A stretch of DNA of 63,401 nucleotides, counting the filler, from Hausera hauseri (Eukaryota): assembly GCA_046269625.1 (NCBI GenBank). It is 11 parts of 11 records of this genome, joined end to end, with 100 filler letters (N's around TTAATTAATTAA, not from the genome) between each part and the next. Parts side by side here need not be neighbours in the genome. Positions count along the whole stretch, not along the records: positions 6,123 to 12,427 come from JBJURY010114876.1; 10 more parts are not named here. One strand, 5' to 3'. Positions within the stretch are counted from its first letter, which is position 1. Every line of letters starts with the position of its first letter. This document shows positions 1,640-53,930 of this stretch, piece after piece. Made by a program: the position numbers and the translations under genes. The notes under the pieces are model-generated. The model had not been told where the DNA came from. It saw nothing but the letters and a program-made list of their open reading frames with translations, and did not search any database.

Positions 1640-2777
1640 TTTCAGTATCTTTTCATGACATACTAATTAGAGATCAAGTTCTACCATCACGGTTCATGGT
1701 TAATATTTTGTTACATAAATTGGCGGAACTGGGTGGACATAGTGAAGCAGCATTTAGAATTTTCTACCGTGCAAAAGAAATTGAAATTTCAACATCTACC
1801 GTTACATGCAATGTTTGTTTTAAAAACTTACGTAAAGAATTGGCTGCAACGATTTCACTGTTGTTAGCTTTGGTCACAGATGGATTAATGGAGGAATTTT
1901 TCTTTGTGCTCGATAAACATTTGGAGGTTGGGAGTAAAGTTGATAATTATACTTTAGCAGCCGTACTGGAAGCTTGTTTGCATGATCGTAAAAGCGGTTT
2001 TAGACTTGCTCTATGTTTGTATAATCGTTTAGTCCATACCAATCATTGTAAAATATCCAATTACGTGTACACAATTCTCCTTAAAGTCGCTATGCACTGT
2101 CCGTTCGGAAATTCCACAGTACTGAAAATTGTATTCGCTCTGCCAACAACAGCATACCAACCCTTTACTTCCCATTATATAAATTCTCAAGAAATATCTC
2201 TCACTCCACCATCGGATCCACCATCATCGTCATTTACAGTTGCAGTCGCCCTTTTAAAAAAATGATGATATTATAAACTCAAAAGCCCGAAAAGTCGGGA
2301 TTTTTGCTACTAATTTTCTAGAGGAAAATGTTTATAAAAATGACGCCTTAGTCTGTTCCATCACATCCCCAACTAATATGTCGCAAAAGAAAAATTTTAC
2401 TGTTTTTGATCAAAAATGACCTCAAACGAAATTAACAACAGCTGCTAAATTGAGTTGCATTGGTGGTGTTTTAGGAGTCGTGGCATTACTGAAGGCCAAC
2501 ATGGCCGATCCAAATATGTTTCTACTGACGAGTCTAATTCGATGTTTACCTTACGATAAATTTACAACAACAGATTATACTTCCAAAGATATTTTTTGTT
2601 CCCATGAGAAAACTCACCGAACATTATAAATTGATACCTGACACAGCTTTTAAAAATGCTTTTCTTAAGAGAAGTATGGTTAAAGAAACATCGGATACGG
2701 AACAAGTTACCGATATCGGCAAAGCCAATCCTATGACAGGGAGTTCACCCCCTATAAACTGTAAAACACCAACAAAC
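1640..2777 (+). pseudogene. PTCD1: PTCD1-like pentatricopeptide-repeat protein fragment, fused in frame to the NOG1 fragment
   Basis: PPR-like helices; CLHDRKSGFRLAL resembles PTCD1 CIQDKKTGFRYAL; LKVAMHCPFGN resembles LVAARDCGLGD; later IGGVLGVV..PNMFLLTSL and LIPDTAFKNAFL; frameshifts after 2265. Confidence 0.7.
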
Positions 2778-3103
2778 TTTCGAAAAGCAGTTGATACCAT
2801 GTTAAAACTGTTGAACCAACAAGACATTAGTACGATATTCTCAATGAAACAGGAAAACGTTAACAAAGAACAGGACGATGTCATAACTGCCGAGAAAAGC
2901 CAAAAATTGATTTTCTTAAAATATATATATCTGCCATTCCTATGTTACTCCTTTCAGATGTGAGTAAATCTGAGATTATCGATCTACTTTCACGTTTTGG
3001 TATTCATATCGACGAGGAATTGCAAATCATATCTCATCAGGCCCTGATAATTATCATACAAGAATTTCCTAATTGGCGACTTAAGACATTGGCCGTTTTC
3101 TGT
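2778..3103 (+). pseudogene. FRY: Furry (FRY/FRYL) fragment
   Basis: FRKAVDTMLKLL..NKEQDDVITAEK, frameshift, then AIPMLLLSDVSKSEIIDLLSRFGIHIDEELQIISHQAL..EFPNWR, matching FRY ([47 protein letters not shown]..DWR). Confidence 0.8.
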
Positions 3104-4032
3104 AAGAATACCATCAATATTTACGCCGGTATTAATTGAATATAGGTTGACCAAAGTTCGGTTATTGCAGTTTATATTTGCTGCTTCAATTTTGTTGCAT
3201 TTGTTACCGGTCCGTCTTGGCATTATAACTTTTTCTCTTTAGTTTTTATGATTCCGTACGTTTTCTGTTGCCTCGGATTTTTAAAATACAATTAATATCC
3301 AGCGAAGGGGTTCATTGGTGATACATTTTGCAATTATTCCGACACCACTTTTACCTTCGTTGCGATTCTAGGCCATTTCAGCAAAACATACCGATACTTC
3401 TTTTCTTTATTCCTCAGATCATAAATTTCGTCTATCCTATTCAACAATTGTTTCACTTTACGCTTTGTCCACGACATCGTTTTTCGAGATATCTTGCTAC
3501 TGTTGACAAAATTACTCATTCTACATTGAAATTTAAATTGGCTTCATTGGACAAAATTGGTAAACTATACTTTTATATTCTGAGGTATTTGACTCTCGTA
3601 GGAATGCATGAATTCGATGATGGCCACGTAGAAATTAATGAAGTAGCCTAGTCAGTTTGCAGCATTGTTAATTGTATATCACCCGTACCTTGTCTTTCCA
3701 AACCTACAAAACTCGACAACGAACCATATATGAAATTTGATGAATCTGTAATGAGAAGAGGTAGAAGTAAAACACATTATCATAAAGTGGGCCCGATTTA
3801 TTTTTCTAATTATAGCGAGTACCTAACTAGAGCTTCTGACTATGGACAGATTCCGTCCCCTTCTAGTTATTGTCCATATTTTTCAATACGCATCGGTTAT
3901 AAGTGCAATAGATCCATTAATCATAGTGAGTCCACAGACCGGTCATATTCTTCAAAAAACACAGCAACTCTCTTACCTTCGAAGGACCACATCGATATAT
4001 CACACTACCCGGTTTACCGTACATCACCATCA

Positions 4033-4246
4033 TTCCCTCTCTACCTTTATGTTAATAATAATCTAATACAAATAGTACATGTCAGTCAACGTATCGAAAC
4101 ATTACAACTATATGCTATCATTCATAATACCTCCGCCTACAGAGATTTCTATCTGACTCACAACGGTTTCATTTTAGTCGACCTCCCACAAATCATGGCC
4201 TCATAACTATCTGTGTATATATATAAATCCTAGAATCCGCGGCGGT
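4033..4246 (+). pseudogene. Ubiquitin-like domain preceding Gag (copy 1; stop and frameshift)
   Basis: FPLYLYVNNNLIQIVHVSQRIETLQLYAIIHNTSAYRDFYLTHNGFILVDL..VYI/INPRIRGG, continuing in frame into gag. Confidence 0.65.
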
Positions 4247-6022
4247 ATAATTTCTTCATCAACCAGTGACATCACCTATAAGGTGACCACAAAACCGAAG
4301 TTCATTCTCTACTAGCCCAAATCAAGCCATCCACCTACTTCAATCGATACAAATTCTTCTCACAAAAATCTTATCAGTTCTTCACCACATTGTTCTGAAT
4401 ATTTTATAGACAATGAGAAGTCTAGCAAAACTTGGTTCCACTTCCATTAACTCTGGTTACAGTCCAACGGTATTACAGACTCGTTATCCAAAGTTCATAA
4501 TCTACTTTACCTTCCACCAAATTCCATAAAAGGCTCAATCCACAACTTACTGGACATTTTTCAACACTCTGACCCTTATACCCAATTGTTCGATGCTGTC
4601 TTAAAACTGACAGAGCCACCAATTGACTCTATAATTCAACGCTTCTTTAACGAAAACTCAATGGGGACAAAAACCCAGTGATTTCCTACGCACCTCGTTG
4701 GCTCACTTACGAACTCTAGGCGTCACCAAGGAACACAATCCGGATCTACTTCGACGATATTTCCTTAATGCATAAACCATTCAAATTAGGGCTTTACTTA
4801 CCGTTGTTGAAAATTCTACAGCCTTAGATAAACTGGCTGAATTGGTACATAAAGCACACAAAGTCTTACAAATCCAGTCACAATCCATAATATCAGCCGC
4901 TATTAGGACCGATGACAATCAACAACATACTTCTATTGAGCACCAATTGAATCAATTACGTGCCGAAAATGCGGCACTACAACACACAATCAACACCATC
5001 AAAAATAAACTAAACGAGATTTTATTGACTCGACGTGAGGGTTTCACACTTGACCTTACCGTTCAGTATTTCGTGGTCGTTCACCTTCTCCTGAACGATC
5101 ACTGATTTGCTATTACCACGGTAAGTTTGATAGTGACGCACAAAAATGCCACATATGATGCAAATTTTATGATCAAAGATACCATAAGGACAACGTCATT
5201 TGCATATATCATGCAAAATTCAGACATAATGCACGCAAATGCATTCCCGGTTGCATGATTAAAAACAAATCCCACCATGCATATGACGAACTCACAATTT
5301 TCGTTTCTAACAGTCGTTCAGGTTCCTCGTTTTCAAAAAATAACTTCGTCACCAGAGTTTTCGGCAAGCACTGGCGAAGACCACTTTTCACTTTCTAATA
5401 GCCGAAAAATTTCTTTCGCCGTGTTCACATTAAAAGCTTCCACCATTGCACCGAGCCCTCAACGCATAGATTTTCTCATCGATTCAGGCGTAGCGATTTC
5501 TTTACTACCGCTCACCTTCCCAACTCAACACACTTCATCCAAAATTACACCTTTATTTACAGCCTCCGGACAACCGCTCCATGTTTCCGGTACATGTAGG
5601 CTTTCTTTTGTCCTTCCGAAATTTACTCAAACATTCCACTGGATATTTACCGTCACAAATATCCAAACAGCCATTTTAGAATCCGATTTTCTTTCGCACT
5701 ATAACCTCCTTGTAGATTGCAAACAACGCTGATTAACAAGTGGTCGCAATAAGGAGCGATTCAATCACGACGATACAATTTCAGCTGTCGTACGGTTGAA
5801 TTCAGCTCAAATGCCGATATTAAAAAAATCGTTAAACAAACCTCTTTTACAACCATGGCATCTTATTTAATAAATCACTAAAGAACAACGTTATTGACGA
5901 TTGGGGTTTGCACAGAGATGAAAGTGATTCTGTTACCACTGCCAAATCCTTCGATAAAACTACAAACTACAATATCATCTTCAATACTACCATCCTGCAT
6001 CGAATACCACTTCATTCTCGAC
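4247..6022 (+). mobile_element. Ty3/Gypsy element copy 1: decayed gag, protease and PR-RT spacer; truncated by contig end
   Basis: YFIDNEKSSKTW..DPYTQLFDAVLK..LDKLAEL gag motifs; CYYH and CIYH zinc knuckles; protease FLIDSGVAISLLP..ILESDFLSHYNLLVD; homologous to 15704-18737 and 51949-53930. Confidence 0.9.
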
Positions 6023-9077: not shown

Positions 9078-9841
9078 TGTTATATATTGGGGTGGCCCTT
9101 AACGATCTCCCGCTATATAACAGTAAGTTACTCTTTGGTTTATTAACCTTATGCAGATTCGGTTTGACGTTCTCGTCAAACGAATGTGCCGATGTGTAAC
9201 GATTTTAGCAGATGCGTGTACTGCGGGCAAATCCTGTGCTTGGTTAATTATAATTCTGGTAGCTATATAATTTAAAGTCTGATTTTACCCTTATTGTTGT
9301 CAAACCAGCTTTAAGAGCCGGTGGAAACTATAGTAGGAAGTTAAAACGATGTAAGCACAAATAAATAATATTACCACAATAACACAATCGTAACAGGATA
9401 AATCACTAGCGAATAAGTCAACAATGATTTGGAGCACAACTTGGCACTGCGATTCAACTTGGGTTTTTAAAACAATCGGTCGGAAACTGATCGACGCTAA
9501 AGTCGGAAATATCTTTAAAGAAAACTTTTACAGATGATCGGTTTCTAACGACGCTAAAGTCGTGAAAATAATGTTCTACTCTATTCTGATTTGGCTACGT
9601 TTATATAGTAGTTCATTGTGCAGGCATCCACAATTTCTATTAATTTCTTATGGCATGCTATGTAGGCGTCCGCAATTTTTCTCTATTTTTGATCGATTTT
9701 TCACAGCCCAATTCCAATGCATGCATCACTAATATAATTATAATCTACCGAATTTTATCTATTTACAGTAAACGATTGATATTTACAGCATCTCCTACGA
9801 TTTGACATTTACGACATAGCCTGCGGTTGACATTTACAACA
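9078..9841 (-). mobile_element. 3' LTR (~760 bp) of env/RING element copy A
   Basis: Minus strand starts TGTTGTA right after PPT AGGGAGGAGAAA (9853-9842) and ends TATAACA at 9078; shares CGCAGTACA(C/A)GCATC with the LTR at 48107-48686. The left boundary is inferred. Confidence 0.7.
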
Positions 9842-12116
9842 TTTCTCCTCCCTGAGCGACATCCTCGGATGTGCTTATTGCGTCAGAAAAGGTGGCGCCA
9901 TCATTTGAGCGTTGTAAGGCATTTAGCCTTTGTCGTAAATCGCTTTGGGAATTGATTCGCATACTAGTTTTGGGATTCTGCTCCAAGAAATAAGCAGTAG
10001 GTGTTTCATATCGACTACTCGATTATTTTCGCTACGTGAAAAGTATTTTAACTGGGATGCCTTTGCTTGGCATACTGGCCATGTCGTTTTTCCATTAATC
10101 AGCGTCCATTGTTCCAGACAATCTCGACAATGACGAAGTCTACAGTTCTTATTTGCTAAAATTACATAGCTTTGCCACAAATTGGCTTCACGTACGAGGC
10201 AATAATTTTGGGTATCCTTATCCAAATCACAGTCCGTAACCCATGTTATCTCTTGGAACAATAATCCTTTTGGATTCTTATAAAGGTATGCATGCAGTTG
10301 CTTTTGATCTGGGTCGACTGAACTTTTTCGTGGGTCCTCATTAACGGCTATTAGGGTCCACTCAATTACGGGTTGAGCATCTAGGTCTAAAATTCCCATT
10401 TTCTTGTACTGTTTCTTTATCTCTATTCTGGTCTGGTTATCAACTGGTACAGTTATTTTCTTGGTCCCTATTTTTGACTTGAATACTGGCGTCAAGTATT
10501 TTCCTAGTTTTGGGTCAATTCGTGCGTAGGCATTTTCGTTCAGTTCTAATATCGGTACTGTATGGATATAAAATATCGCTTCCTTGATATTTTCATGGCT
10601 TACATATTCTGCCATTATCAGGATGCTAGGTTGTTCTTCCATGTCCTTGTGGCCCTCTGTGATTATAATTTCTTTGTCTTGTCCCCTTTTTAGTACATTC
10701 ACTTCCGTAAGTCTCTTTGGTATATTTTCAGTAGGGTACTTTTTGATTTGTTCAGTTTGGGCTGATCCCTTTTCTTCTTTAGAAATCCGAATATTGATTT
10801 CTTTTTCTTTTCTGGAGACGAGTCTCTTAATTTGGGTTTTTTGGTTGATGTTCCTTGGTAGCTCTCCTCGATTTTTTTGTTTTTATGGGTATTTGGAATC
10901 CATATGTAATAGTACTTGATTTATGTTGGGCAGTATCTTGGTTTGAAACTGTAAATTGCATATTATTATCCTTGTTTGATACCGTAATTCGCATACTATT
11001 ATTTCTTTTGGATTCGACAATTCGCGTCGGCGAATACGGATGGAATTGTTTTCGGTGGCGCGAATTCAACTCCTTTAGATTCATACTGCTCTGCAGGTTA
11101 TTTTTAGGATGTAATGGTGACCATTCATGATCCCATTTGATTGTGGCGTAAATATCGCGCAAGTATTGGGTTCTTTTGGTAGCGGACAACTGTCGATTGA
11201 TTCTATAGTGGGTTCCGATCATGATTTCTATCATTCCCTTGAAATGCGTTTCCATGGTCATTGGAGCGGGTCGATTTACATTATCCATTTTCTCCTTAAT
11301 CTTGGGGTGAGCCCAAAACTCTTGTATCCCTGCTATATTTTTAGGGTTAATTTTCAGTTTGTCGATTTGTTCCTGGGTTTGGAATCCCGCGATTATACAA
11401 CTATACAAACAGTGGTTTAGTTCCATTTCTACAGCTTTTGTGTCTTTCCCATTTATCAAATCTTAATTTCTTATGCCTGTTATTTCCGCAAACGTTTCCT
11501 TTACTCTTTTGCGAGGAGAATTTCCATCATCCCCTTCTCCGTAGTTTCAGGCAATTATGCGAACGTTTCGCCCATCCTGTACCACTTTATATGACCATAA
11601 ATGTTGGTCTATTTGATATTCCGTCGGATACTGATAGTATATTAGGGGAGGCAGGGGTATGGTTAGGATTTCTTCACAGGTAATCTCTATTATAAATTTT
11701 ACGGGTAGGGATGCGATTCTTAATTCCACTTCTTCTCTCGTCAAGCTTTTTCCATGTATTGCCTTCCGTTGTTTGCGTCCCAGTTTTGTTCAGTCAGTCA
11801 ATAATAAACTTCCCCTTCTGCCAAGTGTATATACACGTCACTGTGCTGCCACAATTTAAATTACAATAAATATTTTAGACGATAGCTTCGTGCATCTTTA
11901 TTTTTCCTCATCGCATATAATCTCAACACTCGATTCTCTTCGACAATTCCCTTTAGATGGTTAGGAATTTCATCCACCTTATTGTATTCGATTGCTGTCT
12001 CGTTCTGTAGTTCCAGGTTGATTTGTCTAGATTGCTTTGGAATTAAGGGTGATGATGATTGCGTTCTCTTGTAAGAATCCGTCGATATTCATGTAAGAGT
12101 TGCTGCTGGTTGCCAT
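9834..12116 (-). pseudogene. Large accessory ORF with degenerate C-terminal RING finger (copy A; frameshifts and stops)
   Basis: Collinear with 45682-48114: EENRVLRLYAMR, LRIASLPVKFIIEIT, EAIFYIHTVP, EDPRKSSVDPDQK, C-terminus QGGEML*. Confidence 0.85.
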
Positions 12117-12227
12117 AATATTCACCAGTCTGAAATAAAACAAATCAAGGTTAATCCTAAGACAGATCTTTGTTTCATTACAAATCAATTTCCCTGTCTG
12201 ATGATAGAATAACCCGATCTGTAGTTG

Positions 12228-12427
12228 TCAGGTTATTTTATCATATAAATCACTGGTAAACCACCCTTATCCGTCCTTATTTTTGTGCTGTTTTCTACAA
12301 TTTTTGGCAGCTATATAAAATGACGCAATTAATATTAATAAGACGAACGTTGACACTCCAATAGTCGATATAATAGATGAAGTTGTTAATTCAATTGGTT
12401 TCTGTGTTGTCATATATGTAGTAATTG
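12228..12427 (-). pseudogene. C-terminus of env-like membrane protein (copy A)
   Basis: TM helix IISTIGVSTFVLLILIASFYIAA, then KNCRK..LYDKIT*; homologous to the end of 44285-45578. Confidence 0.8.
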
Positions 12428-15703: not shown

Positions 15704-18700
15704 ATGAATTTCCCACCAACCACTGATACTACAGATACAACCACCTCAAAGAAGCCAATACCCATTCTCTACTACACCAGACCAAGTCACCCACCTATTT
15801 TAACCGACGCAAACTCTTCCAACAAAAACCCAGTTCATACTTCTACATATTGCATTGACTACTTCATCGATAATGAAAAGTCCAGTAAAACGTGGCTTCA
15901 TTTCCACCAACTCTGGCTACAGTCTAATGGTATCACTGACTCCTTATCTAAAGCCCATAGTTTGCTTTATCTTCTCCCGAATTACATAAAAGCCTCAATA
16001 CATAACCTGCTAGAGATCTTTCAACACCCTGACCCTTATACCCAATTATTTGACGCTGTATTGAAACAGACCGAACTTTCCATTGACTCCATAATGCAGC
16101 GTTTCTTTAACAAAAATGCACTGGGTACACAAAAACCCAGTGACTTCTTACGGACCTCACTAGCACACTTGCGTACTTTTGGCATCACTAGGGAACATAA
16201 CCCGGATCTTCTACGCCATTATTTTATGAATGCCCTACCTATCCAAATCCGGGCCCTTCTTACCGTGGTGGAAGACTCCACACCACTTGATAAATTGGCC
16301 AAATTGACCGATAGGACATACGATGTCCTCCACATAAATTCACAACCCGTAGTTTCAGCAGAAGTTGCTGCTAACGACATACAAACAACTAACACGCCCA
16401 TAGAACAGCAGCTAAATTAGCTACGTGCTGAAAATATTGCATTGCAGGCAACTAGCACCAACATAAATAATAAATTAAATGAATAGTCTTTGTCCCGACG
16501 AGGGGGTTTTGCCGCTAACCGTACCCGTTATCCTTCAGGAAACCGCTCACATTGCCTGCGCGTTCGTAGATCTGCTACTACCACAGCAGATTTAACACTA
16601 ATGCCCAGAAGTGCTGCCTGGGGTGCCAATTTTATAACAGTAAATTTTCCTCGAGCACCGTTGTTTGCATTTACCATGCGAGATTCAAAAATCAAGCACG
16701 TAAATGTATCCCCGGCTGCACCTTCAAATCCAACACGAACGACGGACGTACTGTCTTCACTTCAAACAGTCGTCCCACTTCTCCTTTTCAAAAAACCTAA
16801 CTTCGCCGCCAGAAGTCACGGCAACCTCTGGCGAAGACACTCGTTCACACTCTAAACGCCGACATGTCCTTTCGCAGTCTTCACGCTAAAAGCCGCAATT
16901 ACTGCCACTACAACTAAATCTCTTGGCTTCCTTATTGATACATGGGCAGCCATTTCTCTATTACCGCAAACCTTTCCTACACAGAACTCTCCTTTCAAAA
17001 TCAAACCTTTATATACTGCTTCAGGCCAGCCGTTGCACATCTCGGGAACGGCTACACTGTCTTTCACACTACCAAATTTCTTCACATCTTTCCGTTGGAC
17101 GTTCACAGTCGCTAACGTCCAGTCGGCAATCCTTGGTTCTTAATTCCTCTCACACTACAATTTACTGGTGGACTGCAACCAGCGATGTCTCAGGAGCGGC
17201 ACCACTGGCAACATTTCTGTACATGTATATAGCGTTTCGACTACCGCGCAGTCGACCGTGAGGTAGAAGTCAATCCTAAAATGTCTGCGAATAAGTCGAT
17301 TTTTTAGAACAGTAATTCGAATTTTCACCAAAGCTAACTCATTCGACGAAAATAACTCAGCCAACACCATTTTCAACTCAACCATCTTGCACCAAATTCC
17401 ACTTGACTGCATATCACGTAGCAACTCAGACATTGCATCCGCTACCACTCAAACCGTTCCACCACTTTCACCGAATCCCTCACAGTTACCTAAAATTTTA
17501 CAGCAATTCATCAACAAAGCATGTCCACGCGTACCTAAAAAAGACCGTTCCTTTACTCATGCCAACAGCACTCTACACCATATAGTCATACAGTATCAAC
17601 GTCCAATACGCCAAAAGGTACGGCCTTTGTCACCTCGCCGTAGACAGGCCGTAGAAGCCGACTTTCTTGAGCTCGAAAGCTCCGGCATAGTACGCCGTTC
17701 CAAATCACCTTGGTCATCACTGTTACACGTTGTACAAAAAAGGATGGCACTTTTCGACCATGCGGTCACTACCGACATCTGAATAACTTGACCATCATGG
17801 ATGCATATCCTTTACCACTCATCAAGGATATCTTGCATCGCCTTAATCCAACCATCATTTATTTGACTATTGATTTAGCTGAAACCTACCACCAAATACC
17901 GGTAGCACCTGAAGACATTGAAAAAACCTCAGTAACTACTCCGTTTGGCCTATACAAATATTTATTTATAGCATTTGGTTTTTGGAATGCAGCACAAACT
18001 TTTTAGCGACACATAGATTCCATTCTTTCCGATTTCTCGTTTGCACACCCTTATATCGACGACATTTTAGTCGTTTCGTCTTCGGCCAAACAACATGAAG
18101 AACACCTTCGAGCAATATTTCAACGTCTCAACCATCATAATCTACAAATCAATTTTGACAAATTTTAATTTTTCAAAAGCGCATTAACTTTTTAGGAAAC
18201 GTTATCACACTAGACGGTCATTCTCCCAATCAGACCGAGTTGAAGCTCTTAAAAACATCCAGTTGCCACGCACGACCACCGAAATGCGCAGCTTCCTTGG
18301 CACACTTTACTTTGTACATAAATATGTGCCATATTGCTCGGAATTAACAGCGCCATTCGCATACCTAAGCGGCGGCAAAAAAATATCAACCAAATCAATG
18401 GACACCTGAATTGGTTGACAAATTCGACAAGCTCCGCGAAGGCATCAAAACTGTAGATATTCTTGCTTTTCCCAAGCCTGATGCAGAACTTATCCTCACT
18501 ACTGACGCGTCAATCACTGCAGTAGGCGCTGTACTCCACCATATCTACAAGGGAGAAAACCAACCATTGGAATTTTTCTCTCGCAAACTAACCGCACCTG
18601 AAACCAGGTATTTCACGTTCGATTAAGAACTATTGGCAATCGTTCTCGCCCTCAAACATTTCTCACACTTACTCGTCGCTCGTCATTTCACTCTACAAAC

Positions 18701-18737: not shown

Positions 18738-18837
18738 NNNNNNNNNNNNNNNNNNNNNNNNNNNNNNNNNNNNNNNNNNNNTTAATTAATTAANNNNNNN
18801 NNNNNNNNNNNNNNNNNNNNNNNNNNNNNNNNNNNNN

Positions 18838-21800
18838 ACGTGATGTCACGTGATTGGTCACATGATGTTACGTGATTGATCTCGCGATGTCACGTCATTA
18901 AACTCATGATATCACGTGATGTCTCGTGATTGGTCCAGTAAAGTCGCGTGATTAAACCCGCGATAACACGTGATGTCACGAGATTGGTCACATGATGTCA
19001 CGCGATTGATCTCGCGACATCACATGATTATACTCATACCAAGTGATGTCACGTGATTGGTCAGATGATGTCACGTGATTGATCTCGCGAAGTCACGTAG
19101 TTAAACTCATGATATGAAGTGATGTCACGTGATTGTTCTGATGATGTCACGTGATTAATCTCGCGATTTCATGTGATTTCACTCATGATATCAAGTGATG
19201 TCACGTGATTGGTCACATGATGTCACGTGATTGATCTCGTGATGTCACGTGATTAAACTCATGTTATCACGTAATGTAACGTGATTAGTCACACTATGTC
19301 ACGTAATTGATCTCGCGATGTCACTTGACTAACTCATGATATCACTTGATATCAAGGGATTGGTCCAGTAATGTTACGTGATTGAACCCGCGATATCACG
19401 TGATGTCACTTGATTAGTCACATGATGTCACGTGATTGATCTCGCAATGTCAAGTGATTAAACTCATGAGATCACGTGGTATCACGTGATTGGTGTCATG
19501 ATGTCACGTGATTGATCTCGCGATGTCACGTGATTAAACTCATGAGATCACGTGATATCACGTGATAGGTGTCATGATGTCACGTGATTGATCTCGCGAA
19601 GTCACGTGATTAAACCCATGATATCATGTGATGTCACATGATTGGTCACATGACGTCGCGTGATTGATCTGGTGATGTCACGTAATTAATCTCATGTTAT
19701 CACGTGATGTAACGTGATTGCTCTCGTGAAGTCACGTGAATAAACACATGATATCACGTGATGTCGCGAGATTGGTCACATGAGGTCACGTGATTGATCT
19801 CGCGATGTCACGTGATTAAACTCATGATATGAAGTGATGTCACGTGATTGGTCACATGATGTCACGTGATTGATCTCACGATGTCATGTGATTAAACTCC
19901 TGAGATCACGTGATATCACGTGATTGGTCACATGATGTCACGTGATTGATCTCGCGAAGTCACGTGATTAAACTCATGATATCAAGTGATGTCACGTGAT
20001 TGGTCACATGACGTTACGTGATTCATCTCGCGATGTTATGTGATTAAACTCATGAGATCACGTGATATCACGTGATTGGTCACATCATGTCACGTGATTG
20101 ATCTCGCGAAATCACGTGATTAAAATCATGATATCAAGTAATGTCACGTGATTGGTCACATGATGTCACGTGATTGATCTCATGATGTCACGTGATTAAA
20201 CTCATGTTATCACATGATGTAATGTGATTGCTCTCGTGAAGTCACGTGAATAAACACATGATATCACGCGATGTCACGTGATTGGTCACATGATGACACG
20301 TGATTGATCTCGTGATGTCACGTGATTAATCTCATGTTATCGCGTAATGTAACGTGATTGCTCTCGTGAAGTCACGTAAATAAACACATGATATCACGTG
20401 ATGTCACGTGATTGGTCACATGATGTTACGTGATTGATCTCGCGATGTCACGTCATTAAACTCATGATATCACGTGATGTCTCGTGATTGGTCCAGTAAA
20501 GTCGCGTGATTAAACCCGCGATAACACGTGATGTCACGAGATTGGTCACATGATGTCACGCGATTGATCTCGCGACATCACATGATTATACTCATACCAA
20601 GTGATGTCACGTGATTGGTCAGATGATGTCACGTGATTGATCTCGCGAAGTCACGTAGTTAAACTCATGATATGAAGTGATGTCACGTGATTGTTCTGAT
20701 GATGTCACGTGATTAATCTCGCGATTTCATGTGATTTCACTCATGATATCAAGTGATGTCACGTGATTGGTCACATGATGTCACGTGATTGATCTCGCGA
20801 TTTCATGTGATTTCACTCATGAGATCACGTGATGTCACGTGATTGGTCACATGATATTACGTGATTGATCTCGCGATGTCATGTGATTAAACTCATGAGA
20901 TCACGTGATATTACGTGATTGGTCACATGATGTCACGTGATTGATCTTTCGAAGTCACGAGATTAAAATCATGATATGAAGTGATGTCACGTGATTGGTC
21001 TGATGATGTCACGTGATTGATCTCGCGATTTCATGTGATTTCACTCATGAGATCACGTGATGTCACTTGATTGGTCACATGATGTCACGTGATTGTACTC
21101 GCGAAGTTACGTGATTAAACTCATGATATCACGTGATATCACGTGATTGGTCACATGATGTTACGTGATTGATCTTGCGATGTCACGTGACTATCTCATG
21201 ACATCACGTGACGTCGCGTGAATAAACTCATGATATCATGTGATGTCACATGATTGGTCAAATGATGTCACGTGATTGATCTCGTGATGTCACGTGATTA
21301 ATCTCATGTTATCACGTGATATAACGTGATTGCTGTCGTGAAGTCACGTGATTAAACTCATGATATCACGTGATGTCTCGTGATTGGTCCTGTAATGTCA
21401 CGTGATTGAACCCGCAATATCACGTGATGTCACGAGATTGGTTACATGATATCACTCGATTGATCTTGCAATGTCAATAATTAAACTCATATCAAGTGAT
21501 GTCACGTGATTGGTCACATGATGTTACGTGATTGATCTCGCGAAGTCACATGATTAAACTCATGATATGAAGTGATGTCACGTGATTTGTCACATGATGT
21601 CACGTGATTGATCTCGCGATTTCATGTGATTGAACTCATGAGATCACGTAATGTAAAGTGATTAGTCACACTATGTCACGTAATTGATCTCGCGATGTCA
21701 CTTGACTAACTCATGATATCACGTGATGTCACGTGATTAGTCACATGATGTCACATGTTTGATATCGCGATGTTACGTGATCAAACTCATAATATCACGT

Positions 21801-23643
21801 GAAGTCACGTGATTGGTGTCATGATGTCACGTGATTTATCTCGCGATGTCAAGTGACTAACTCATGATATCACGTGACGTCACGTGATTGGTCACATGAT
21901 GTCACGTGATTGATCTCGCGATGTCACGTTACTAAACTCATGATATCACATGACGTCACGTGATTGGACCCGTAAAGTCACGTGATTGATCTCGTGATAT
22001 CACTTTATTAATCTCATGTTATCACGGGATGTAACGTGATTGCTCTCGTGAAGTCACGTGAATAAACCCATGATATCATGTGATGTCACATGATTGGTCA
22101 CATGATGTCACGTGATTGATCTGGTGATGTCACGTGATTAATCTCATGTTATCACGTGATGTAACGTGATTGCTCTCGTGAAGTCACGTGAATAAACACA
22201 TGATATCACGTGATGTCGCGAGATTGGTCACATGAGGTCACGTGATTGATCTCGCGATGTCACGTGATTAAACTCATGATATGAAGTGATGTCACGTGAT
22301 TGGTCACATGATGTCACGTGATTGATCTCACGATGTCATGTGATTAAACTCCTGAGATCACGTGATATCACGTGATTGGTCACATGATGTCACGTGATTG
22401 ATCTCGCGAAGTCACGTGATTAAACTCATGATATCAAGTGATGTCACGTGATTGGTCACATGATGTCACGTGATTGATCTCGCGATGTCATGTGATTTAA
22501 CTCATGAGATCACGTGATGTCACGTGATTGGTCACATTATGTTACGTTAATGATCTCGCTATTTCACGTGATTAAACTCATGAGATCACGTAATATCACG
22601 TAATTGGTGTCATGATGTCACGTGATTGTTCTCGCGAAGTCACGTGATTAAACTCATGATATCAAGTGATGTCACGTGATTAATCACATGATGTCACGTG
22701 ATTGATATCCCGATGTTACGTGATCGAACTCATGATATCACGTGATGTCACATGATTGGACACATGATGTCACGTGATTTATATCGCGCTGTCAAGTGAC
22801 TACCTCATGATATCACGTGCCGTCGCTTTATTGGTCACATTATGTCACGTGATTGATTTTGCGATGTCACGTTACTGAACTCATGATATCACATGACGTC
22901 ACGTAATTGGACCCGTAAAGTCACGTGATTGATCTCGTGATGTCACGTGATTAATCTCATGTTATCACGTGATATAACGTGATTGCTTTCGTGAAGTCAC
23001 ATAAATAAACTCATGATATCACGTGATGTCACGTGATTAGTCACATGATGTTACGTGATTGATCTCGCGATGTCACGTGATTAAATTAATGATATCACGT
23101 GATGTCTCGTGATTGGTTTAGTAATGTCACGTGATTGAACCGGCGATATCACGTGATGTCACGAGATTAGTCACATGATGTCACGCGATTGATCTAGCGA
23201 TGTCACGTGATTAAACTCCTGATATCAATTGATGTCACGTGATTGGTCACATGATGTCACGTGATTAATCTCGCGAAGTCACGTGATTAAACTCATGATA
23301 TGAAGTGATGTCACGTGATTGGTCGCATGATGTCACGAGATTGATCTCGCGATTTTATGTGATTTCACTCATGAGATCACCTGATGTCACGTAATTGGTC
23401 ACATGATGTTACGTGATTGATATCGCGATGTCACGTGATTAAACTCATGATATCACGTGATATCACGTGATTAGTCACATGATGTCACGTGATTGATATC
23501 CCGATGTTATGTGATCAAACTCATGATATCACGTGATGTCACGTGATTGGACACATGATGTCACCCGATTTATCTCGCGATGTCAAGTGACTACCTCATG
23601 ATATCACGTGACGTCGCGTTATTGGTCACATGATGTCACGTGA
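18838..23643. repeat. Satellite array, ~76-bp unit (22+22+22+10) built on TCACGTGA palindromes
   Basis: Consensus TGATGTCACGTGATTGGTCACA TGATGTCACGTGATTGATCTCG CGATGTCACGTGATTAAACTCA TGATATCACG; 54-bp variants; fills the whole contig. Confidence 0.98.
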
Positions 23644-23743
23644 NNNNNNNNNNNNNNNNNNNNNNNNNNNNNNNNNNNNNNNNNNNNTTAATTAATTAAN
23701 NNNNNNNNNNNNNNNNNNNNNNNNNNNNNNNNNNNNNNNNNNN

Positions 23744-29614: not shown

Positions 29615-32416
29615 TTAGTCATCGTCTGTTTGCTCTTCTGCTAACTTCTTAACACAGGCGTTAAACACTTCAATTGCTTTTCTGGGGTTCCATTTTGCTT
29701 CATCGCATTCTGAATCACTTTCCTTGGTCTCCACCTCTGTTCTGTTCGCTGTTCTTTTATTCAGGGTTCTTTTATTCCTGACTGCCACTCGAACCTTACG
29801 TTCACCTTTTGGCTTCACCTGCTTAGCCTTGTAACTTCCCTTTATAACCTCTGCAGTCTGCTGTTTTGCTTTCATTTGTTTTTGTTTTTCTGTATCAACA
29901 GGGTTTTTATCCTTTTTACTTATCTCCTTATCCACTTCCAGGTTTTCAGCCATTTCTCCTTGACCTACCTTAACTGTTTCTCGTGGTCCTATCAGAACCA
30001 TTTCGCCTTGTCCTATCTTAACCATTTCTCTTTGTCCTATCTTATGCTTTGCTGCAATGTCGCATACGAAACAACAGTCCTTGACGTAAACGTCATAGAT
30101 AACGCCTTCGTCCTGATAATTATGACACCTTTTCTTCATTTCCTTGATAGCTTTGACATATCTAGTTTGCCATTCCTCACAAATTTCAATATTCCTCTTT
30201 TCCTCTTCTATACTCTCCCTAATTTCATTCCTCAACCATTCATTACGTTTCAGTACCTCTTCATTCTGTTTCTTTAATTTCTTTATTCGTTCTAATTGCT
30301 CCCTATTCTCCTCATCTAGCTTTCTCATCTGCTCCTCCATGTCTGGGATTTTCTGTATCTTATCTTCTATTGCATTTATGTGCACCTGATTCCTCTCTTT
30401 GAGACTGTTAAGCTGCTTCAGTTGAATGTTTAATAATTCAATCTCATTGTCCTTTTCCTTTAGGTTTTCCCTATAATTATCTACTTTGTTTCTTAGTGTG
30501 TTAGTATTCTCAACATGGTCACGATGTGAATTATGTAATTTTATCTCTAGTTCTACCTTAACCTTGTAAAATTCTTCCACCTGCCTTTTATTTTGCTCAA
30601 GTAGTTTTTGCTGTTGAGATTCNNNNNNNNNNNNNNNNNNNNNNNNNNNNNNNNNNNNNNNNNNNNNNNNNNNNNNNNNNNNNNNNNNNNNNNNNNNNNN
30701 NNNNNNNNNNNNNNNNNNNNNNTCTAGTTCTACCTTAACCTTGTAAAATTCTTCCACCTGCCTTTTATTTTGCTCAAGTAGTTTTTGCTGTTGAGATTCT
30801 AGTGATTGAATGTATTTCTCCATCTGATCAATTTCTTTCTGTTTATCTGCTACTCTTATCATAAGTGCTTTGACATAGTTTCTCTCTTCCTCCACTATCT
30901 TATTTAATTCTTCTAACTGCTTCAAGTACTCTTCCTCTACAGTGACTCGTTTGATTGGCTCCTCTGAGCTATTCTCAGTATCTTGCTTATGTCTTATTAT
31001 TTTTACCCTCATTTCTTCCCCCTTTTCTGAACTCATTTCTTCCCCCTTTTCTGAACTCTCTTCCCCCAGAGTTCTGGCATATACCTCTGAGCTTTCTTCA
31101 TTCCCACTCAGTGGTTCCTTATAATAATAGTTATCTCTGCTCTCAAGATTCTGAGCGGTGTCTGCCACACCTGCTTGACTTTCTGTCATTCTCTTCCTTC
31201 TTTTTGACTGTTTCCTTGCCACTTTTGCCTCTGTTTCTGTGCTTTGACATTCCTCGACCTTCATATTTTCTTCCAGTGCATCTAGAAATTCCTCTGATTC
31301 ATCACTCACATAACCACTACCTTCATTAGTTGATACCAGACTGCATTGTTTCTCCACTGCTGCTATAACCTGTGGTGAATTACTCTTCACCATTGTTTCC
31401 CCTTCATTCTTCTGGGGTCTACTACCCTTACACTCAATGTCTGTGGCCTGTGGCCCTCCCTCTTTGTCAGCTCCATTAAAATTTATCCTCCATTTGTTTG
31501 ACCTCCTCTGGGTTAATCGCCTCTGAGGTTGGTCCCTTTGTCGAGTCACTTGACTCACTATCCCATGTAGACTACGGATCTCACTTACTAGATTCTTAAT
31601 AATTGTGGTTTGCTTTTCAACCACTCTAAGTGTATTTCCTTCACTTCGTCTTGTTCTATCCCTCTGTCTTTTTCCCGGTCTCTTTTTTGCTTTTTCACCA
31701 TCGGCCTGACAGTGTCCACTGAAGTATGATTGCTCATATGCCCTATCTGAATCTGACAACTTGTGGAACCATTTTTTAACTTCGCTGACTCTTCCACAAA
31801 AGTGACATCTATGTAACTGAATCTTTAGAACTCTACTGTTTATATTGGCACCATTTATTCCTACCAGTGTCTGCTTATTTTGTGAGTTAACATTGGTACA
31901 GGATTCATTAAAATGTAGGATTTTATTTGCATGTCTATTATAACTAAGTGTCCCGTGAGCTATTTTATCATCTTCAAAATGCCTCATTGTTTGATTTCTT
32001 ATTATTTTCCCAGTTTCTCTTGCCCCATTCATGTAATTGTTTCTATAGTGGTGGTCATTCTTGCCCCACTTTGAGAACCTTTCTCTGCTATATTCCCAAT
32101 TGTTTACATTCCATCTTTTCTGTGGACCAAAATAAAAATCACCCCATGGGATAACCCTACCCCTCTTTTGTCTACCTAAATCACCCCACAACTTCCTACT
32201 GTCTTGTCCAGTAACTACCTGTCTGTTTACCTGGTGACCTAAATTCCTTTCTCCCTTCTTTTTGTGACTAGAAAACCCACCTTCTGTAGTGTGTGAGTTC
32301 ATGACCTTGCTAGTAGGAGTGTTTAGTGTCCTATTGTCTAGTAATTGTTCACAGGCCTGTGCTTTGGACTGTGTTACTGTATTGGGCTGTGTTGTTTCAT
32401 CTGTTGTTTGTTCCAT
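29615..32416 (-). CDS. Long uninterrupted coiled-coil ORF with degenerate zinc knuckle; probably retroelement gag-like
   Basis: First ATG at 32416; CHFCGRVSEVKKW resembles a CCHC knuckle; E/K/Q-rich coiled coil. About 875 aa once the 77-nt duplication and 100 N gap are removed. Confidence 0.55.
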   Translation of the reverse strand: MEQTTDETTQPNTVTQSKAQACEQLLDNRTLNTPTSKVMNSHTTEGGFSSHKKKGERNLGHQVNRQVVTGQDSRKLWGDLGRQKRGRVIPWGDFYFGPQKRWNVNNWEYSRERFSKWGKNDHHYRNNYMNGARETGKIIRNQTMRHFEDDKIAHGTLSYNRHANKILHFNESCTNVNSQNKQTLVGINGANINSRVLKIQLHRCHFCGRVSEVKKWFHKLSDSDRAYEQSYFSGHCQADGEKAKKRPGKRQRDRTRRSEGNTLRVVEKQTTIIKNLVSEIRSLHGIVSQVTRQRDQPQRRLTQRRSNKWRINFNGADKEGGPQATDIECKGSRPQKNEGETMVKSNSPQVIAAVEKQCSLVSTNEGSGYVSDESEEFLDALEENMKVEECQSTETEAKVARKQSKRRKRMTESQAGVADTAQNLESRDNYYYKEPLSGNEESSEVYARTLGEESSEKGEEMSSEKGEEMRVKIIRHKQDTENSSEEPIKRVTVEEEYLKQLEELNKIVEEERNYVKALMIRVADKQKEIDQMEKYIQSLESQQQKLLEQNKRQVEEFYKVKVELXXXXXXXXXXXXXXXXXXXXXXXXXXXXXXXXXXESQQQKLLEQNKRQVEEFYKVKVELEIKLHNSHRDHVENTNTLRNKVDNYRENLKEKDNEIELLNIQLKQLNSLKERNQVHINAIEDKIQKIPDMEEQMRKLDEENREQLERIKKLKKQNEEVLKRNEWLRNEIRESIEEEKRNIEICEEWQTRYVKAIKEMKKRCHNYQDEGVIYDVYVKDCCFVCDIAAKHKIGQREMVKIGQGEMVLIGPRETVKVGQGEMAENLEVDKEISKKDKNPVDTEKQKQMKAKQQTAEVIKGSYKAKQVKPKGERKVRVAVRNKRTLNKRTANRTEVETKESDSECDEAKWNPRKAIEVFNACVKKLAEEQTDDD

Positions 32417-32847
32417 TCTCACTATTTATTGTTACCTATCTGTCTATTATATTTATTATATCTTTCTAATTATGTTTATACCCTGTTATTAACTCTGTCC
32501 TGTGAAATAAAATTTGTTATAAATTATAATTTATTGTCACCTGCAAAAAAAAAGTGTATTAGTTTTGCAATAAAATTGCTGATTAAATTGTATTAATTTC
32601 TTGATTGTTTGCGTTTTTATATGTTGTGCTGTTGCCAGCTTTACATGTCAAAATAAAAATATACCTGCAACAAGAAATAAACATTTAGTACCAACATGCA
32701 AATATATTCAGTGTCCAATGATTTATCTTCCCAGTCTGAATGTTTTCTTCCCCCTGGTTCATTCAATAAGTCCTTGTCTGAGATTACCCCCAAAGAGATT
32801 TTCTCTGCCTAGGATTATCCTGGCACGGAGACCAATATTTATAATGG

Positions 32848-41418: not shown

Positions 41419-43040
41419 TTAACCCTATGTGACAGTTTGTGTACAATTTGCATCAAACCATTTTCATCGATTTATACGTGCTAGCGTTGGAGAATTTTTC
41501 TCTTGAAACCTGTTATTGCGAATTCTACACTTACCTAGCAAATAGTGAGAAACAGAATTGCAACAGTTTATGAGTGTTCATGTTCTTGTTCTTTGATGTT
41601 CACACCTGTGTGTACGAGTTGGCTTGGGGTTCAGTATTACGTTTTATCAATGGGATTTCTTCACGTGTTATGTATTTTATGAATTAAAAATAGGAAATTG
41701 ATAAGTAAAGGGCTAAAGATGTAATAAAGTTGTTTTAGTTTGAAATATTCTGAAACAGTAACTATTTGTACGAGTGTAAACCATTGTGTAAAATTCTACA
41801 CTGGAGGCTTCAATGTTGCATTTCACTAATCTCAAAGCATTTTAGTACTTTGATCAATTTTTATTGTAGTAATAATTTACAAATTGTGTTTATTATTATT
41901 TGCAATGATGTAATTTTTACAGGTACATAACATTGAGTTTTATGATTTTTCATAATTTTGTGTCAAATTTTAGATTTTGAGATTTGATTTCAATGATTTA
42001 CAATGAATACAATTAGTTCAAAAAGCCTTTATGGTACAAAGTCTACCATTGAGAATCACACTCGCACTGCACCCAAGGACAGTTATGATACTGGATTGTC
42101 AGGAAATGAAAGTGAGGATGACATACCGACACCTAATATTTGCAATTATTATGATGACGTGGAAGATGGTGGTAGTGATGAAGATGATGACATCGAGGTA
42201 CCAAGCACTTCTGGAGCTGCACCTCATGGTAGAGATACTGTATTGGAACGTGTGACAGGTGCTGCAGGTCACAAGCCAGTCCCAGTCTGAACGGAAACCC
42301 CTGCGGATGTGGATGAATTGAAGCTGTCGATCGAGTATTTCAGATATTTCTTCTCAGATGAACTATTTGACCATATGGTACAGAAAAGCAACTTGTTTGC
42401 CATACAAAGAAATGTAAACAAACCTCTACAGCTTCTTAGACACGAGCTTGAACAGTTCTTTGGAAGTGTGATGATGGTTTTCATCTTCAAGTATCCAAGA
42501 ACACAAGGGTACTGGGCAAAACAACTCAACTATAGCATATTTCCAACCTCATATCTCGTGACAATGATGGAAATCAAGAGCAACTTGCACATAAATAATA
42601 ATACAAATATGCCTGATGCTAATGATGCGAACAGATATAAACTCTTCAAAATTAGACCATTGATAGTTTCCAGTCCCTCAAAATGTCGCAGATGATGAGC
42701 ATAGATCAACAGATGAATCCTTTCAAGGGGCATAGCAACTGGAAGCAGTACATGCCGAAAAAACCTTACAAATGGGGGTACAAGATTTTCATTCTCAGCG
42801 GAAGTGATGGTGTTTCATACAATTTTGAAGTTTATACGGGGAATATTGGGCAAGCTGATAAATGCGCAGATATTGGAGCAAGTGAGAATATAGTTATGAA
42901 GCTAACAAACATTGTGCTACACAATGCAAATGCTCTGTTGCATTTTGATAACTGGTTTGCATCTTTGAATCTTCTGGTGGAACTGCACAAGAAAGGTTCG
43001 TAGGCGCTCGAAACAATCAGAAGCAATCGTCTGGGTGCTT
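41419..43040 (+). mobile_element. piggyBac element (PGBD3-like transposase pseudogene), 3' truncated
   Basis: TTAA-CCC at 41419; fragments 42003-43040: YFRYFFSDEL, KLFKIRPL, SIDQQMNPFKG..QYMPKKPYKWGYK, FDNWFAS, TIRSNRL. Confidence 0.92.
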
Positions 43041-44233: not shown

Positions 44234-44284
44234 GGCAAAATTATTAGAGAAACAAAAACGTTGTCAATAGTAACTAGACCAATA

Positions 44285-45578
44285 TCGTATGTGCAAATAG
44301 TCCTGGCCTTATCGTTAATCGCTTCGTATCTACCGAAGGTGAAATCGATAAATCAAGCTGAAAAATTGCAATATGCGGCAAGGGACATTTAAAACTTACA
44401 GTCACCCAAAGTACACGATATGGATTGGAGAAAACCATGTTCGTGGTTCGAAGCAAGTGAACCCATTTAGAGTTATGTGAAATTTCAAATAATATTTGTA
44501 ACTAAATCCATGATGAGAACATGTGATTTTCCACACGGACATCATAAAAGATGCTGTGATTTGGACTTTTGACAAGCCTACGGATACAGATTTCAAATGT
44601 TCTATTCTAATCAGTTTGGAGCTCAAGCTTATATAATTACAGAACTCGTAATAAGAATGCCGCAGCGAAAGGATGCGAATCAAGTCAAGACGGACGAAAT
44701 AATCCGAAGCACTGACCCGTTTAAAAGACTCTTAGAATATAACATTATTGGGATTTCTAAGGACTTTAAAAACCAATGTATTCGAATCAAAACTAAGGTA
44801 GAACTGCATGGAGACAGACAAATTTCTGTCCGATGTATACCATTAAATGCTTCCATTCCTAACCCGGAGTATTGTTATTTGGCCAGACGCCGATCTACTA
44901 TGTGCTGTGTAATACAATTAGGACAAAAATATCAGCTGCAATTCGACTTGTACAATACGTACTCCGGAGAACGAAGTACGGGATATCGTCCGAGAATCGG
45001 AATATGGGAGCTTTCCTTCCCAACCACTACGAGAAGACCATCTACAGTTCCAAGTACAACTCTCACTACTACGATCGTCACTTCGGACGAAATGCCAGAA
45101 AGCATACCGGTTAAGATTTTAGCAAAAAGTGGTAGAATTCTATTTTACGTTGAAGAGACGTTAAATCGAGACGTCAAAATTGAATGTCGCACCCTGCACA
45201 TCAACCAAGTTGTGATCCTGAAAAAAAAATAATCAGGAAGCTGAATGCAGGTCCTTACGGCCGAAACATGACTATATAATCAGAATTATCTCAAAGGATA
45301 AGAACCCTAAAACTTATACAGTGCGGACTGTAGACAACCAAATCTAAGTGATGCGGTAAAGAGATCTTAGTACGCAGAATGCTTTTACCACAAAAGATTC
45401 TATTGAAACAAACAATTTACTGACGATAGTTAAATTAAGTTTATCAATTTTCGTTCTTGTCATATTAACGGCGATGATTTTTCTAGTTTCCAAAAATTGT
45501 AATAAGCGCTGTAAAAATCGGAAGGGAGATAAATGGGTAAAAAGGCACCAAAACGGACTTTATGATAGCATAACCTGA
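44285..45578 (+). pseudogene. Env-like type-I membrane protein (signal peptide, Cys-containing ectodomain, Thr-rich stalk, TM, YxxI tail), decayed
   Basis: YVQIVLALSLIASYLPKVKS in frame with integrase; PTTTRRPSTVPSTTLTTT; TM LLTIVKLSLSIFVLVILTAMIFLVS; KNC..LYDSIT* with TGA 45576-45578. Confidence 0.75.
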
Positions 45579-45681
45579 CAACTACAGATCGGGTTATCCT
45601 ATCATCAGACAGAGAAAATGTTTTGTTTCAAAACGGTGATGTCTTAGGACTGACCTTTATTTTTATTTCAGCAGAGTAAGT

Positions 45682-51948: not shown

Positions 51949-53930
51949 ATGCAATCCTATTCCACCATTGGCACTACGGACGATCCTGCTAAACCTAAAT
52001 CGATTATTTACCTCAAAAAACAATGTAACCTTAAACCATCAATAACTCCTCAAAACTCTTGTAAGACTTCTCTGTATGAGCAAACGGATATCAACCCATC
52101 TCAGTGTACCGAATATTTTATTGACAACCAAAATTCTAGCAAAACTTGATTGCAGTTTCACCAACTATGGCTTGAATCTTGCGACATTACTGATTTTTTG
52201 GCTAAGGCTAACAATCTTCTATTCCTCCTCTCAACCAACATCAAAACTCGTATCCACAATCTTATGGATATTTTTCAGCAGGCCGACCCTTATACTCAGC
52301 TTTATATACTCTATAATTCATCGCTTCTTTAATCATAATGCAATGGGAACACAAAAGCCTTCTGAATTTCTGCGTATGTCGTTGACTCACCTTCAAACGC
52401 TAGGTGTAACCAAGCAGCACAATTCCGACCTTCTGCGACGATATTTCTTAAACGCGTTGCCTACACAAATTAGGGCACTTTTTACCGTTGTTGAGGAATC
52501 TACGGTGTTGGATAAATTAACCGAATTAGCTCATAAAGCACATGAAGTGCTACAATTGAATTCCCAACCAATTGTATCAGCCGCGGTCACAACAAGCGAC
52601 AACCAACTCAATACATCAATAGAGCAACGGTTGAGCCAACTATGCGTTTAAAACTTGGCACGACAACAGACAATAAATAACATTAATAATAGGTTAAACG
52701 ATCTTTCATTACCACGACGAAGTGTCCTTTTTTAACCTTACCCGTTCTGTTTCCAAAAATCGGTCACCATCGCCTACACGATCTTATGTATGCTATTATC
52801 ATAACACATTTAATAATAAAGCTAATAAATGCTGTTTAGGGTGTAGATATTACACTCCACATTTACATTCAGACAAAATTGTTTGCATCTATCGTGCGAA
52901 ATTTGGATTTCACGCTCAGTGTCTTTCAGGGTGCAACTATAAGAACAACGCTAACCATACCACCGGCAGAAGTTCTATTTCCCCTTGTAATAGTCGGCCG
53001 ATCTCACCAATTCAAAAAAACTAATTTCGCCGCCAGTACTCACGGCAGAGTCTGGCAAAGGCAACTTCCCTAACACTAACTGCCGATACACTTGCAGTTT
53101 TTACACTAAAGGCTTCGATAACCACACCAACAACTCAATCTGTAGACTTTCTTATTGACACGGGTGCTGCGGTTTCTTTGCTGTTACTCTCCTTCTCTGT
53201 ACAAAATTCACCATTCAAAACTAAATTATTATTTACGGCTTCCGGACTACCGCTCGACATTTTAGGTACATCTAAATTATCGTTCACCTTACCAAAATTT
53301 CACTCCCAGTTTCATTAGCCGTTTACCGTCGATAACGTCCGCACAGTTATACTAGGTTCCGATTTCTTATCCCACTTTAATCTTTTAGTTGATTGCAAAC
53401 AACAATGTCTGAAAAGTAACACTACTGGATAACGTACCAAGCAAATAAACAGTATATCCGCTATAGCGTGAACGATTTTCCGACAGAAATCTATACTCAA
53501 ACATCCTATAACTAATCTAAACTTCTTCAACAAGCATTTTTCATTTCGTAAATTTTTAATGATAATATTGATATCTCGTGGAGATTTGGCTTTGGCAACT
53601 ACGGTTGTGTTAGTTCGGTACCTTCCCTAGACAAAATTACCTCTTCGAACACTATTTTCAATACTACTATCCTACATTAAATTCCACTTGATTTCACTAG
53701 CTCAAAATTCACTCGTCACTGCATATATTAACTCAATACTCCTCCCAACACCCAATGTCACAATTGCCTGCAAGCCTACGGCAATACATGCGCACTTCAT
53801 GTCCCCGTTTAATCCAAAAGGGCCGATCTTTCACTTCTACGGGTAGCACTATTCATCACATCATAACGCAACATGAACGACCTATTCGTCAAAAGGTGCG
53901 TCCATTGTCACATCGTCGTAGGAAAACTGA
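51949..53930 (+). mobile_element. Ty3/Gypsy element copy 3: decayed gag, protease, start of RT
   Basis: MGTQKPSEFLR..FLNALP..LDKLTEL; CYYH..KCCLGC and CIYR..CLSGC; FLIDTGAAVSLL; HHIITQHERPIRQKVRPLS. Confidence 0.92.

Follow-up and report, generated by a model that had tools for sequence, protein, structure and literature searches.

A recoding-like cassette that is real and conserved was found in a dead copy of an apparent LTR retrotransposon of Hausera hauseri, where a TGA stop with a TMV-like 3' context separates a membrane-protein gene from an accessory gene lying downstream in the same frame. With moderate confidence, the bridge between the two genes is proposed to serve programmed readthrough in working members of the family, where it would fuse the membrane protein to a pseudo-exonuclease/RING protein. 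The window, meaning the whole stretch of DNA that was analysed, is 63,401 nucleotides long, is made up of short contigs with N spacers between them, and includes two copies of the element: copy A on the minus strand of the contig at 6123-12427 (JBJURY010114876.1) and copy B on the plus strand of the contig at 43805-48686. Both copies are decayed and neither works, so the question is what the family does; copy A is a dead copy that cannot make the fusion product.

Both contigs start after most of pol, and RT and the second LTR lie outside both. Copy B runs in the order integrase C-terminal-like piece, membrane gene, bridge, accessory gene, polypurine run and TGTTG. The integrase-like piece matched PF18697 at E 0.083 and has a GPY motif, which is typical of such integrase C-terminal pieces. 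Judged by this anatomy, copy B is an LTR retrotransposon in which pol is followed by two genes, and a purine run followed by the TG of a likely LTR start, seen in both copies, is consistent with the Ty3/gypsy type. By blastn, copies A and B have just 12130-12245 and the polypurine end in common; the accessory genes do not align as DNA. Identity between the copies is 93-97% near the stop and 40-70% in the flanks. The genes and the end of the element were placed as follows.

9834-12116, minus strand: decayed accessory gene of copy A, with an ISG20-like exonuclease fold, a middle region and a C3HC4 RING; stops and frame changes occur throughout.
9842-9856, minus strand: polypurine tract and, after it, TGTTG, where the 3' LTR probably starts; the second DNA block common to copies A and B.
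12231-12425, minus strand: C-terminal 65 codons of the gene in env position of copy A, comprising a transmembrane helix, a basic cytoplasmic tail and a YxxI end; truncated by the contig end at 12427.
44270-45578, plus strand: gene in env position of copy B, approximately 435 codons, with a signal-like N-terminus, a Cys-rich part, a Thr-rich stalk and a transmembrane helix, as assigned from anatomy and hydropathy.
45682-48114, plus strand: accessory gene of copy B; its single frame of 810 codons is interrupted by 6 internal stops, and identity to the intact relative P0004 is 40%.

The upstream gene is, on its predicted architecture, that of a type I membrane protein in env position, and 'Env' serves here as a positional label. 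Copy B presents the env layout of signal peptide, ectodomain, transmembrane helix and short tail in a position after pol; several stops and one frame change lie upstream, and the frame through helix, tail and TGA is intact. In copy A the helix has a hydropathy of 2.39 across 19 residues. A TAA at 12269-12267 stands in the tail frame of this copy 13 codons ahead of the TGA, which is thus not the first stop of the frame, and related contigs differ from copy A by indels in the tail at 12253 and 12270. The TGA had been described as the stop of an Env gene; the stop is real, whereas the identity of the protein as a viral fusion protein was not borne out by any search. No F-type or gB-type homology was found among Pfam, PDB, protein or Atlas matches, and no homologue of the env-position protein occurred among 364 candidates of 176-560 residues. 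Two structure models reached pLDDT values of 28.5 and 32.2 (the latter for the membrane protein), too low for use. The last residues of the tail, Y-D-x-I-T, form a YxxPhi-like sorting motif, for which the 5' arm of a predicted hairpin described below is the coding sequence (H1; 12234-12245, minus strand; 45561-45572, plus strand). YxxPhi sorting motifs are typical of retroviral Env tails.

The accessory frame of copy A meets a stop at 12029-12027, 29 codons past its ATG, and continues through three frame changes in four further pieces. Two relatives from metagenome assemblies proved informative: P0004, an intact protein of 870 residues with a C3HC4 RING at E 2.6e-7, and P0005, a partial relative. 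P0004 alone gave no Pfam match over its exonuclease-like part. A profile of eight relatives matched human ISG20L2 at E 3e-20; rows for acetyl-CoA carboxylase in the same profile search stem from a chimeric member, P0007. The Atlas lead for the accessory protein was PF00929 at 0.89, and among the distant accessory matches PF00929 was carried by three of seven that are retroelement-like and by one cellular-type protein. The catalytic D-x-E of motif I reads D-A-E in P0022, P0025 and P0046, and an Asn occupies the place of the first acid in P0004 and P0005. The accessory protein is accordingly best described as a putative pseudo-exonuclease, a DEDDh fold of ISG20/REXO4 type that appears to lack the first catalytic acid, joined to a RING. 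No fused env-accessory protein was present among 5676 candidates of 445-1418 residues. The gene crosses the polypurine tract and ends 8 nt into the likely LTR (9834-9856, minus strand; 48097-48114, plus strand), with a C-terminal end, QG(G/E)EML, common to P0004.

Several further features were noted elsewhere in the window. A second repeat family is present in three copies 64-68% alike (4303-5731, 15763-17187 and 52102-53403), with no Pfam match in the ORFs scanned. An open frame of 1394 codons at 53975-58159 (minus strand) contains periodic repeats of 57 nt, again with no Pfam match, and a satellite of approximately 5 kb at 18738-23743, built of 22, 32 and 54 nt units, fills one contig. Pieces of a DDE_Tnp_1_7 transposase, an SMC hinge gene and an ORF with a NOGCT domain lie at 42291-43000, 60959-62463 and 1246-2265. 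A coiled-coil-like open frame of 936 codons at 29615-32425 (minus strand) extends over an assembly gap and has no Pfam match; it resembles the opening ORF of a further mobile element.

The junction between the membrane-protein and accessory genes comprises the following elements.

12228-12230, minus strand: TGA, candidate leaky codon; no variant is listed here in the related contigs.
12216-12227, minus strand: CAA CTA CAG ATC, a stop-CARYYA context that also forms the H1 loop; it encodes QLQI, the four residues that follow the stop in TMV.
12117-12227, minus strand: open bridge of 111 nt, in frame with both the stop and the accessory gene; the match to P0005 is in this frame only.
12186-12188, minus strand: bridge codon 14, a possible internal start that is polymorphic in related contigs; copy B has a Met here (45618-45620), whereas copy A does not.
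12201-12245, minus strand: hairpin H1, predicted, 17-18 pairs, with the stop buried in the 5' arm and CARYYA in the loop; the block most conserved between the copies.
12140-12222, minus strand: stem-loop H2, predicted by folding, wholly 3' of the stop; core pairs join 12214-12195 with 12164-12149.
12130-12155, minus strand: splice-acceptor-like site, with a branch-like YTRAY, a T-rich tract and a CAG ending at 12130, 13 nt ahead of the ATG.
45579-45681, plus strand: bridge of copy B, 103 nt and out of frame, with the same context, H1, H2 and acceptor-like site.

The original prediction, that the TGA at 12230-12228 (minus strand) is followed by 111 nt without a stop leading in frame to the ATG at 12116, was exact, the bridge having 37 codons and the peptide being as given. 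The gap of 103 nt claimed for copy B was also confirmed, between a TGA at 45576-45578 and an ATG at 45682; its first part is open in the frame of the stop and its last part in that of the ATG. Both other frames of the copy A bridge contain stops. After 20,000 base shuffles of the bridge, 4.1% were open, or 1.4% once a one-in-three frame match is included. Openness alone is nonetheless modest evidence, since 17.6% of 111-nt stretches sampled over the whole window are open.

The sequence following the stop is more distinctive. Both copies read TGA-CAA-CTA-CAG-ATC. Of all 7367 stop triplets in the window, 12 are followed by CARYYA; the TMV-like form of 12 nt is confined to these two sites. CAR-YYA is the TMV-type readthrough signal (PMC3159437, PMC2194720); TMV itself reads UAG CAA UUA CAG AUU, and contexts derived from CAAUUA work after UGA as well (PMC13517186). 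The bases preceding the TGA are ACC, with no A at -1 or -2, and type I signals usually have UAG where this junction has UGA. Long host ORFs are open under the standard code, which bears on reassignment of TGA and on selenocysteine.

Variation at the junction was assessed using contigs of a single public run, X1, for which a third of the words were shared and which is perhaps from the source organism. A total of 573 of 15.5 million contigs aligned to 12085-12300 at 80% likeness. With a 1% threshold, 26 variant rows were listed, none of them at 12216-12242; at the peak depth 1% corresponds to approximately 1000 units, so variation in small subfamilies could escape. Summed contig depth (109,593 at the peak against 2,367-4,646 elsewhere in the bridge) was not taken as copy number. 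Within the bridge, 23 rows at 19 places introduced zero in-frame stops when worked out by hand, an outcome with a chance of 0.30, and both indel rows fall in the tail, with none listed in the bridge. The contigs are short, and among the pieces listed one spans the whole bridge, with one gap letter somewhere. Bridge variants are distributed 8/6/5 over the codon positions, without third-position bias, and the bridge peptide shows no sign of selection at the amino-acid level on this count. Variable places are concentrated in the H2 loop (11 of 27) as against the H2 3' arm (3 of 26; Fisher p 0.028). The alignment ends for 36 and 14 contigs at 12195-12201, and for others at 12245; the flanks beyond are less than 80% alike, and H1 is thus common to more divergent subfamilies. 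In a wider alignment, the non-coding stretch 9105-9759 held 9 of 12 among the indel rows listed, a weak contrast.

Evidence for the bridge frame in a distant relative was provided by P0005. Its first 30 residues match copy A bridge codons 11-37, approximately, in the frame of the stop, with a score of 49 that was equalled in none of 5000 shuffles; the other frames scored 14 and 15. In P0005 the bridge peptide is open into the accessory domain and no Met stands at the place of ATG 12116. This ATG is therefore not conserved as a start, and a distant relative has the same bridge frame. A protein database shows in-frame cases only, and P0005 is to that extent a biased sample. The N-terminus of P0004 could not be placed significantly against the bridge (624 of 5000 shuffles). 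Searches for DNA relatives were negative: a motif scan of viral and metagenome contigs found none, and protein-guided scans confirmed none of 5 viral, 269 metagenome and 194 genome-contig candidates. A 17-mer scan of prokaryote genomes returned 14 loci, none alike beyond 17-20 bases, and these were dropped as chance matches; phage records gave no match. A search with a stop-free piece of 287 residues was equally negative.

The called starts of P0004 and P0005 both fall within the bridge, which raises the possibility that translation restarts at the bridge Met, 39 nt past the stop, through reinitiation, internal entry or an internal promoter. The product would then be an N-terminally extended, unfused accessory protein. 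Such a start would leave codons 14-37 open without readthrough, and is consistent with the Met at codon 14 of copy B and with the related contigs, in which 1438 of 2083 depth units differ from copy A at 12188; a junction promoter is known from Tca2 (PMC2194720). Against this, P0005 encodes Val at the corresponding codon and begins four codons before it, gene callers accept any upstream start, and the placement of P0004 is the non-significant one given above. Codons 1-13 are likewise open and carry the exact leaky context. An internal start is considered quite unlikely.

Folding of the junction predicts two structures that are mutually exclusive, since the 5' strand of H2 is a strand of H1. In the free RNA, H1 is dominant in copy B and accounts for approximately 40% of the ensemble in copy A. 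When the bases to +6 were held unpaired, as they would be under a ribosome, H2 replaced H1. In both copies the predicted stem falls within the range of extended 3' stem-loop elements, which have 10-14 pairs and start 7-12 nt past the stop; in copy B, H2 has a 12-nt spacer, an 11-pair stem and a 1-nt 3' bulge. When each was folded on its own, beginning at the stop, the copies share 15 of the 34 pairs of copy A, among the 30 of copy B. Two one-sided changes between the copies keep H2 pairing and there are zero two-sided ones, while the first residue and His13 of P0005 imply, from their codons, a probable swapped (two-sided) pair in the inner stem of H2. The fold energy of the bridge is marginal, with z of -2.16 for copy A and -0.90 for copy B (12 and 55 of 300 shuffles, respectively, being equally good).

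The strongest conservation lies in H1 and includes 12 nt upstream of the stop, where plain readthrough needs none; a hairpin that buries the stop is unexplained by the readthrough model. H1 might be some other cis element, such as a packaging, dimerisation, export or protein-binding hairpin, with the frame match incidental. Its 5' arm and loop are invariant and common to contigs with flanks less than 80% alike, as is the case for the polypurine tract, and the variants sit on its 3' strand. A 12-nt TMV-like context directly after the stop of a gene, together with an open frame in both copy A and P0005, is unlikely to be incidental, and no Rfam family was found at threshold, making this alternative improbable. 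An Rfam search of the H1 region gave three matches up to E 5, all far under gathering. The best, at 12189-12258 (minus strand), was to the mir-4878 precursor over 9 shared loop bases (E 0.27; 19.4 bits compared with a gathering score of 100), which is at chance level. A microRNA reading of H1 was dropped, as the invariant part is the loop and 5' arm and not the two arms.

Retrovirus-like elements usually express their downstream genes by splicing. The accessory gene could be expressed from a subgenomic RNA, cis-spliced or trans-spliced to a spliced leader, through the acceptor with which the bridge ends; the stem-loops would then regulate how accessible the branch point is, and the open frame would be a by-product of conserved RNA. 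YTRAY, T-rich tract and TTTCAG are present in both copies, 13 nt (copy A) and 10 nt (copy B) before the ATG, and sites of this kind occur at approximately 1.2 per 100 stretches of 30 nt in the window (49 in 124,622 nt). The branch-like word lies within the 3' arm of H2. In copy A (12092), P0004 and P0005 a Met just precedes the first conserved motif, as would be expected of an independently started gene, and plant env is expressed by splicing (PMC2829016). This route leaves the invariant stop-CARYYA 100 nt upstream unexplained. Moreover, P0005 has 22 open in-frame codons upstream of the acceptor and 35 more before Met68, and the T-rich tract doubles as an F/L/Y-rich peptide that is kept in P0005. 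Splicing as the sole explanation is judged unlikely, and the two routes can coexist. A splice-donor-like hexamer was also observed 4 nt past the acceptor-like AG (12125-12120, minus strand; 45676-45681, plus strand); it is an exact GTRAGT in copy B and has one mismatch in copy A, at a base where copy A differs from 2222 of 2238 depth units. The same place encodes a Val-Ser kept in P0004 and P0005.

All three alternatives leave the invariant TMV-like context unexplained. For the family, readthrough is the preferred interpretation because the stop-CARYYA, the shared 3' stem-loop, the invariant stop context and the in-frame bridge peptide of P0005 all favour it, and to this extent the readthrough fusion originally proposed is supported in part. 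The proposal is qualified by the decay of both copies and the availability of other routes; of the window's two copies, copy B is out of frame and counts against it. A readthrough assay can also turn out negative for an in-frame stop followed by a 3' structure, as Tca2 shows (PMC2194720).

Under the readthrough model, a ribosome reaching the stop would melt H1 and free its 3' strand to pair approximately 60 nt downstream, forming H2, an 11-pair stem starting 12 nt past the stop. Context and stem together would let a near-cognate tRNA decode UGA in a minority of rounds, and the 37-codon bridge would act as a loosely constrained linker. The fusion product, estimated from copy B, would have approximately 1,280 residues and hold the RING and nuclease-like domains in the cytoplasm at the membrane. 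Such a topology is sensible, as the tail past the helix would be cytoplasmic. A more speculative reading, judged unlikely, is that the junction acts as a two-state RNA switch in an invertebrate LTR clade: in free RNA, H1 would hide the stop and leave the branch point open, giving a spliced, free accessory protein, and with a ribosome at the stop H2 would cover the branch point and drive TMV-type readthrough, so that a pseudo-nuclease/RING E3 ligase anchored to the envelope would be made.

If readthrough does operate, the element would produce a small, fixed share of a membrane-tethered RING ligase, which may suit the down-regulation of host membrane or silencing proteins. The cassette, at approximately 130 nt, is short and natural, and the overlap of H1 and H2 bears on ribosome-triggered refolding. 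Retroelement readthrough is documented at gag-pol and pol-env, so a leaky stop ending a gene in env position would be a new place for it. No case of env-to-accessory readthrough was found in the literature covered, which was mostly open-access main texts. The term 'retrotransposon' is absent from the texts of a 2026 readthrough review (PMC13517186) and of Firth et al. 2011 (PMC3159437). Similarly, no readthrough is described in the passages on Juno/Vesta (PMC5408684) and Burro/GYPSM1 (PMC6431247), or in those of a survey of env-carrying retrotransposons.

Accessory genes alike in kind are carried by the bdelloid elements Juno/Vesta, whose ORF3 encodes a DEDDy exonuclease (PMC5408684), and by the planarian Burro/GYPSM1, an LTR element bearing a RING (PMC6431247). 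The present element differs from these in that the ISG20-like domain and RING are combined in one gene of 800-870 residues between env and the polypurine tract. Among LTR elements, MuLV at gag-pol and SIRE1 at pol-env also read through an in-frame stop (cited in PMC2829016, PMC2194720). In those cases the stop alone separates the genes, whereas here a 37-codon linker would lead from the gene in env position to a fourth, accessory gene. The alphavirus Sindbis resembles the predicted H2 in its UGA, 12-nt spacer, 11-pair stem, 1-nt 3' bulge and less conserved loop (PMC3159437); the differences from alphaviruses are CAA-CUA in place of CUA or CGG directly after the stop, a loop of approximately 50 nt with an inner stem, and thin covariation. 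The TMV type I signal has the same arrangement of stop and CAR-YYA, and its next two codons match as well, giving QLQI (PMC3159437, PMC13517186). Compared with type I signals of plant viruses, the junction described here has UGA for UAG, no A at -1 or -2, a setting in an animal LTR element and a second, predicted hairpin that would bury the stop. Benyviruses combine a type I context with a predicted 3' stem-loop, and in the coat-protein extensions of benyviruses and pomoviruses a structural protein acquires a long readthrough domain (PMC3159437, PMC13517186). If the readthrough reading is correct, an animal LTR element would share this coat-protein-readthrough strategy with plant viruses.
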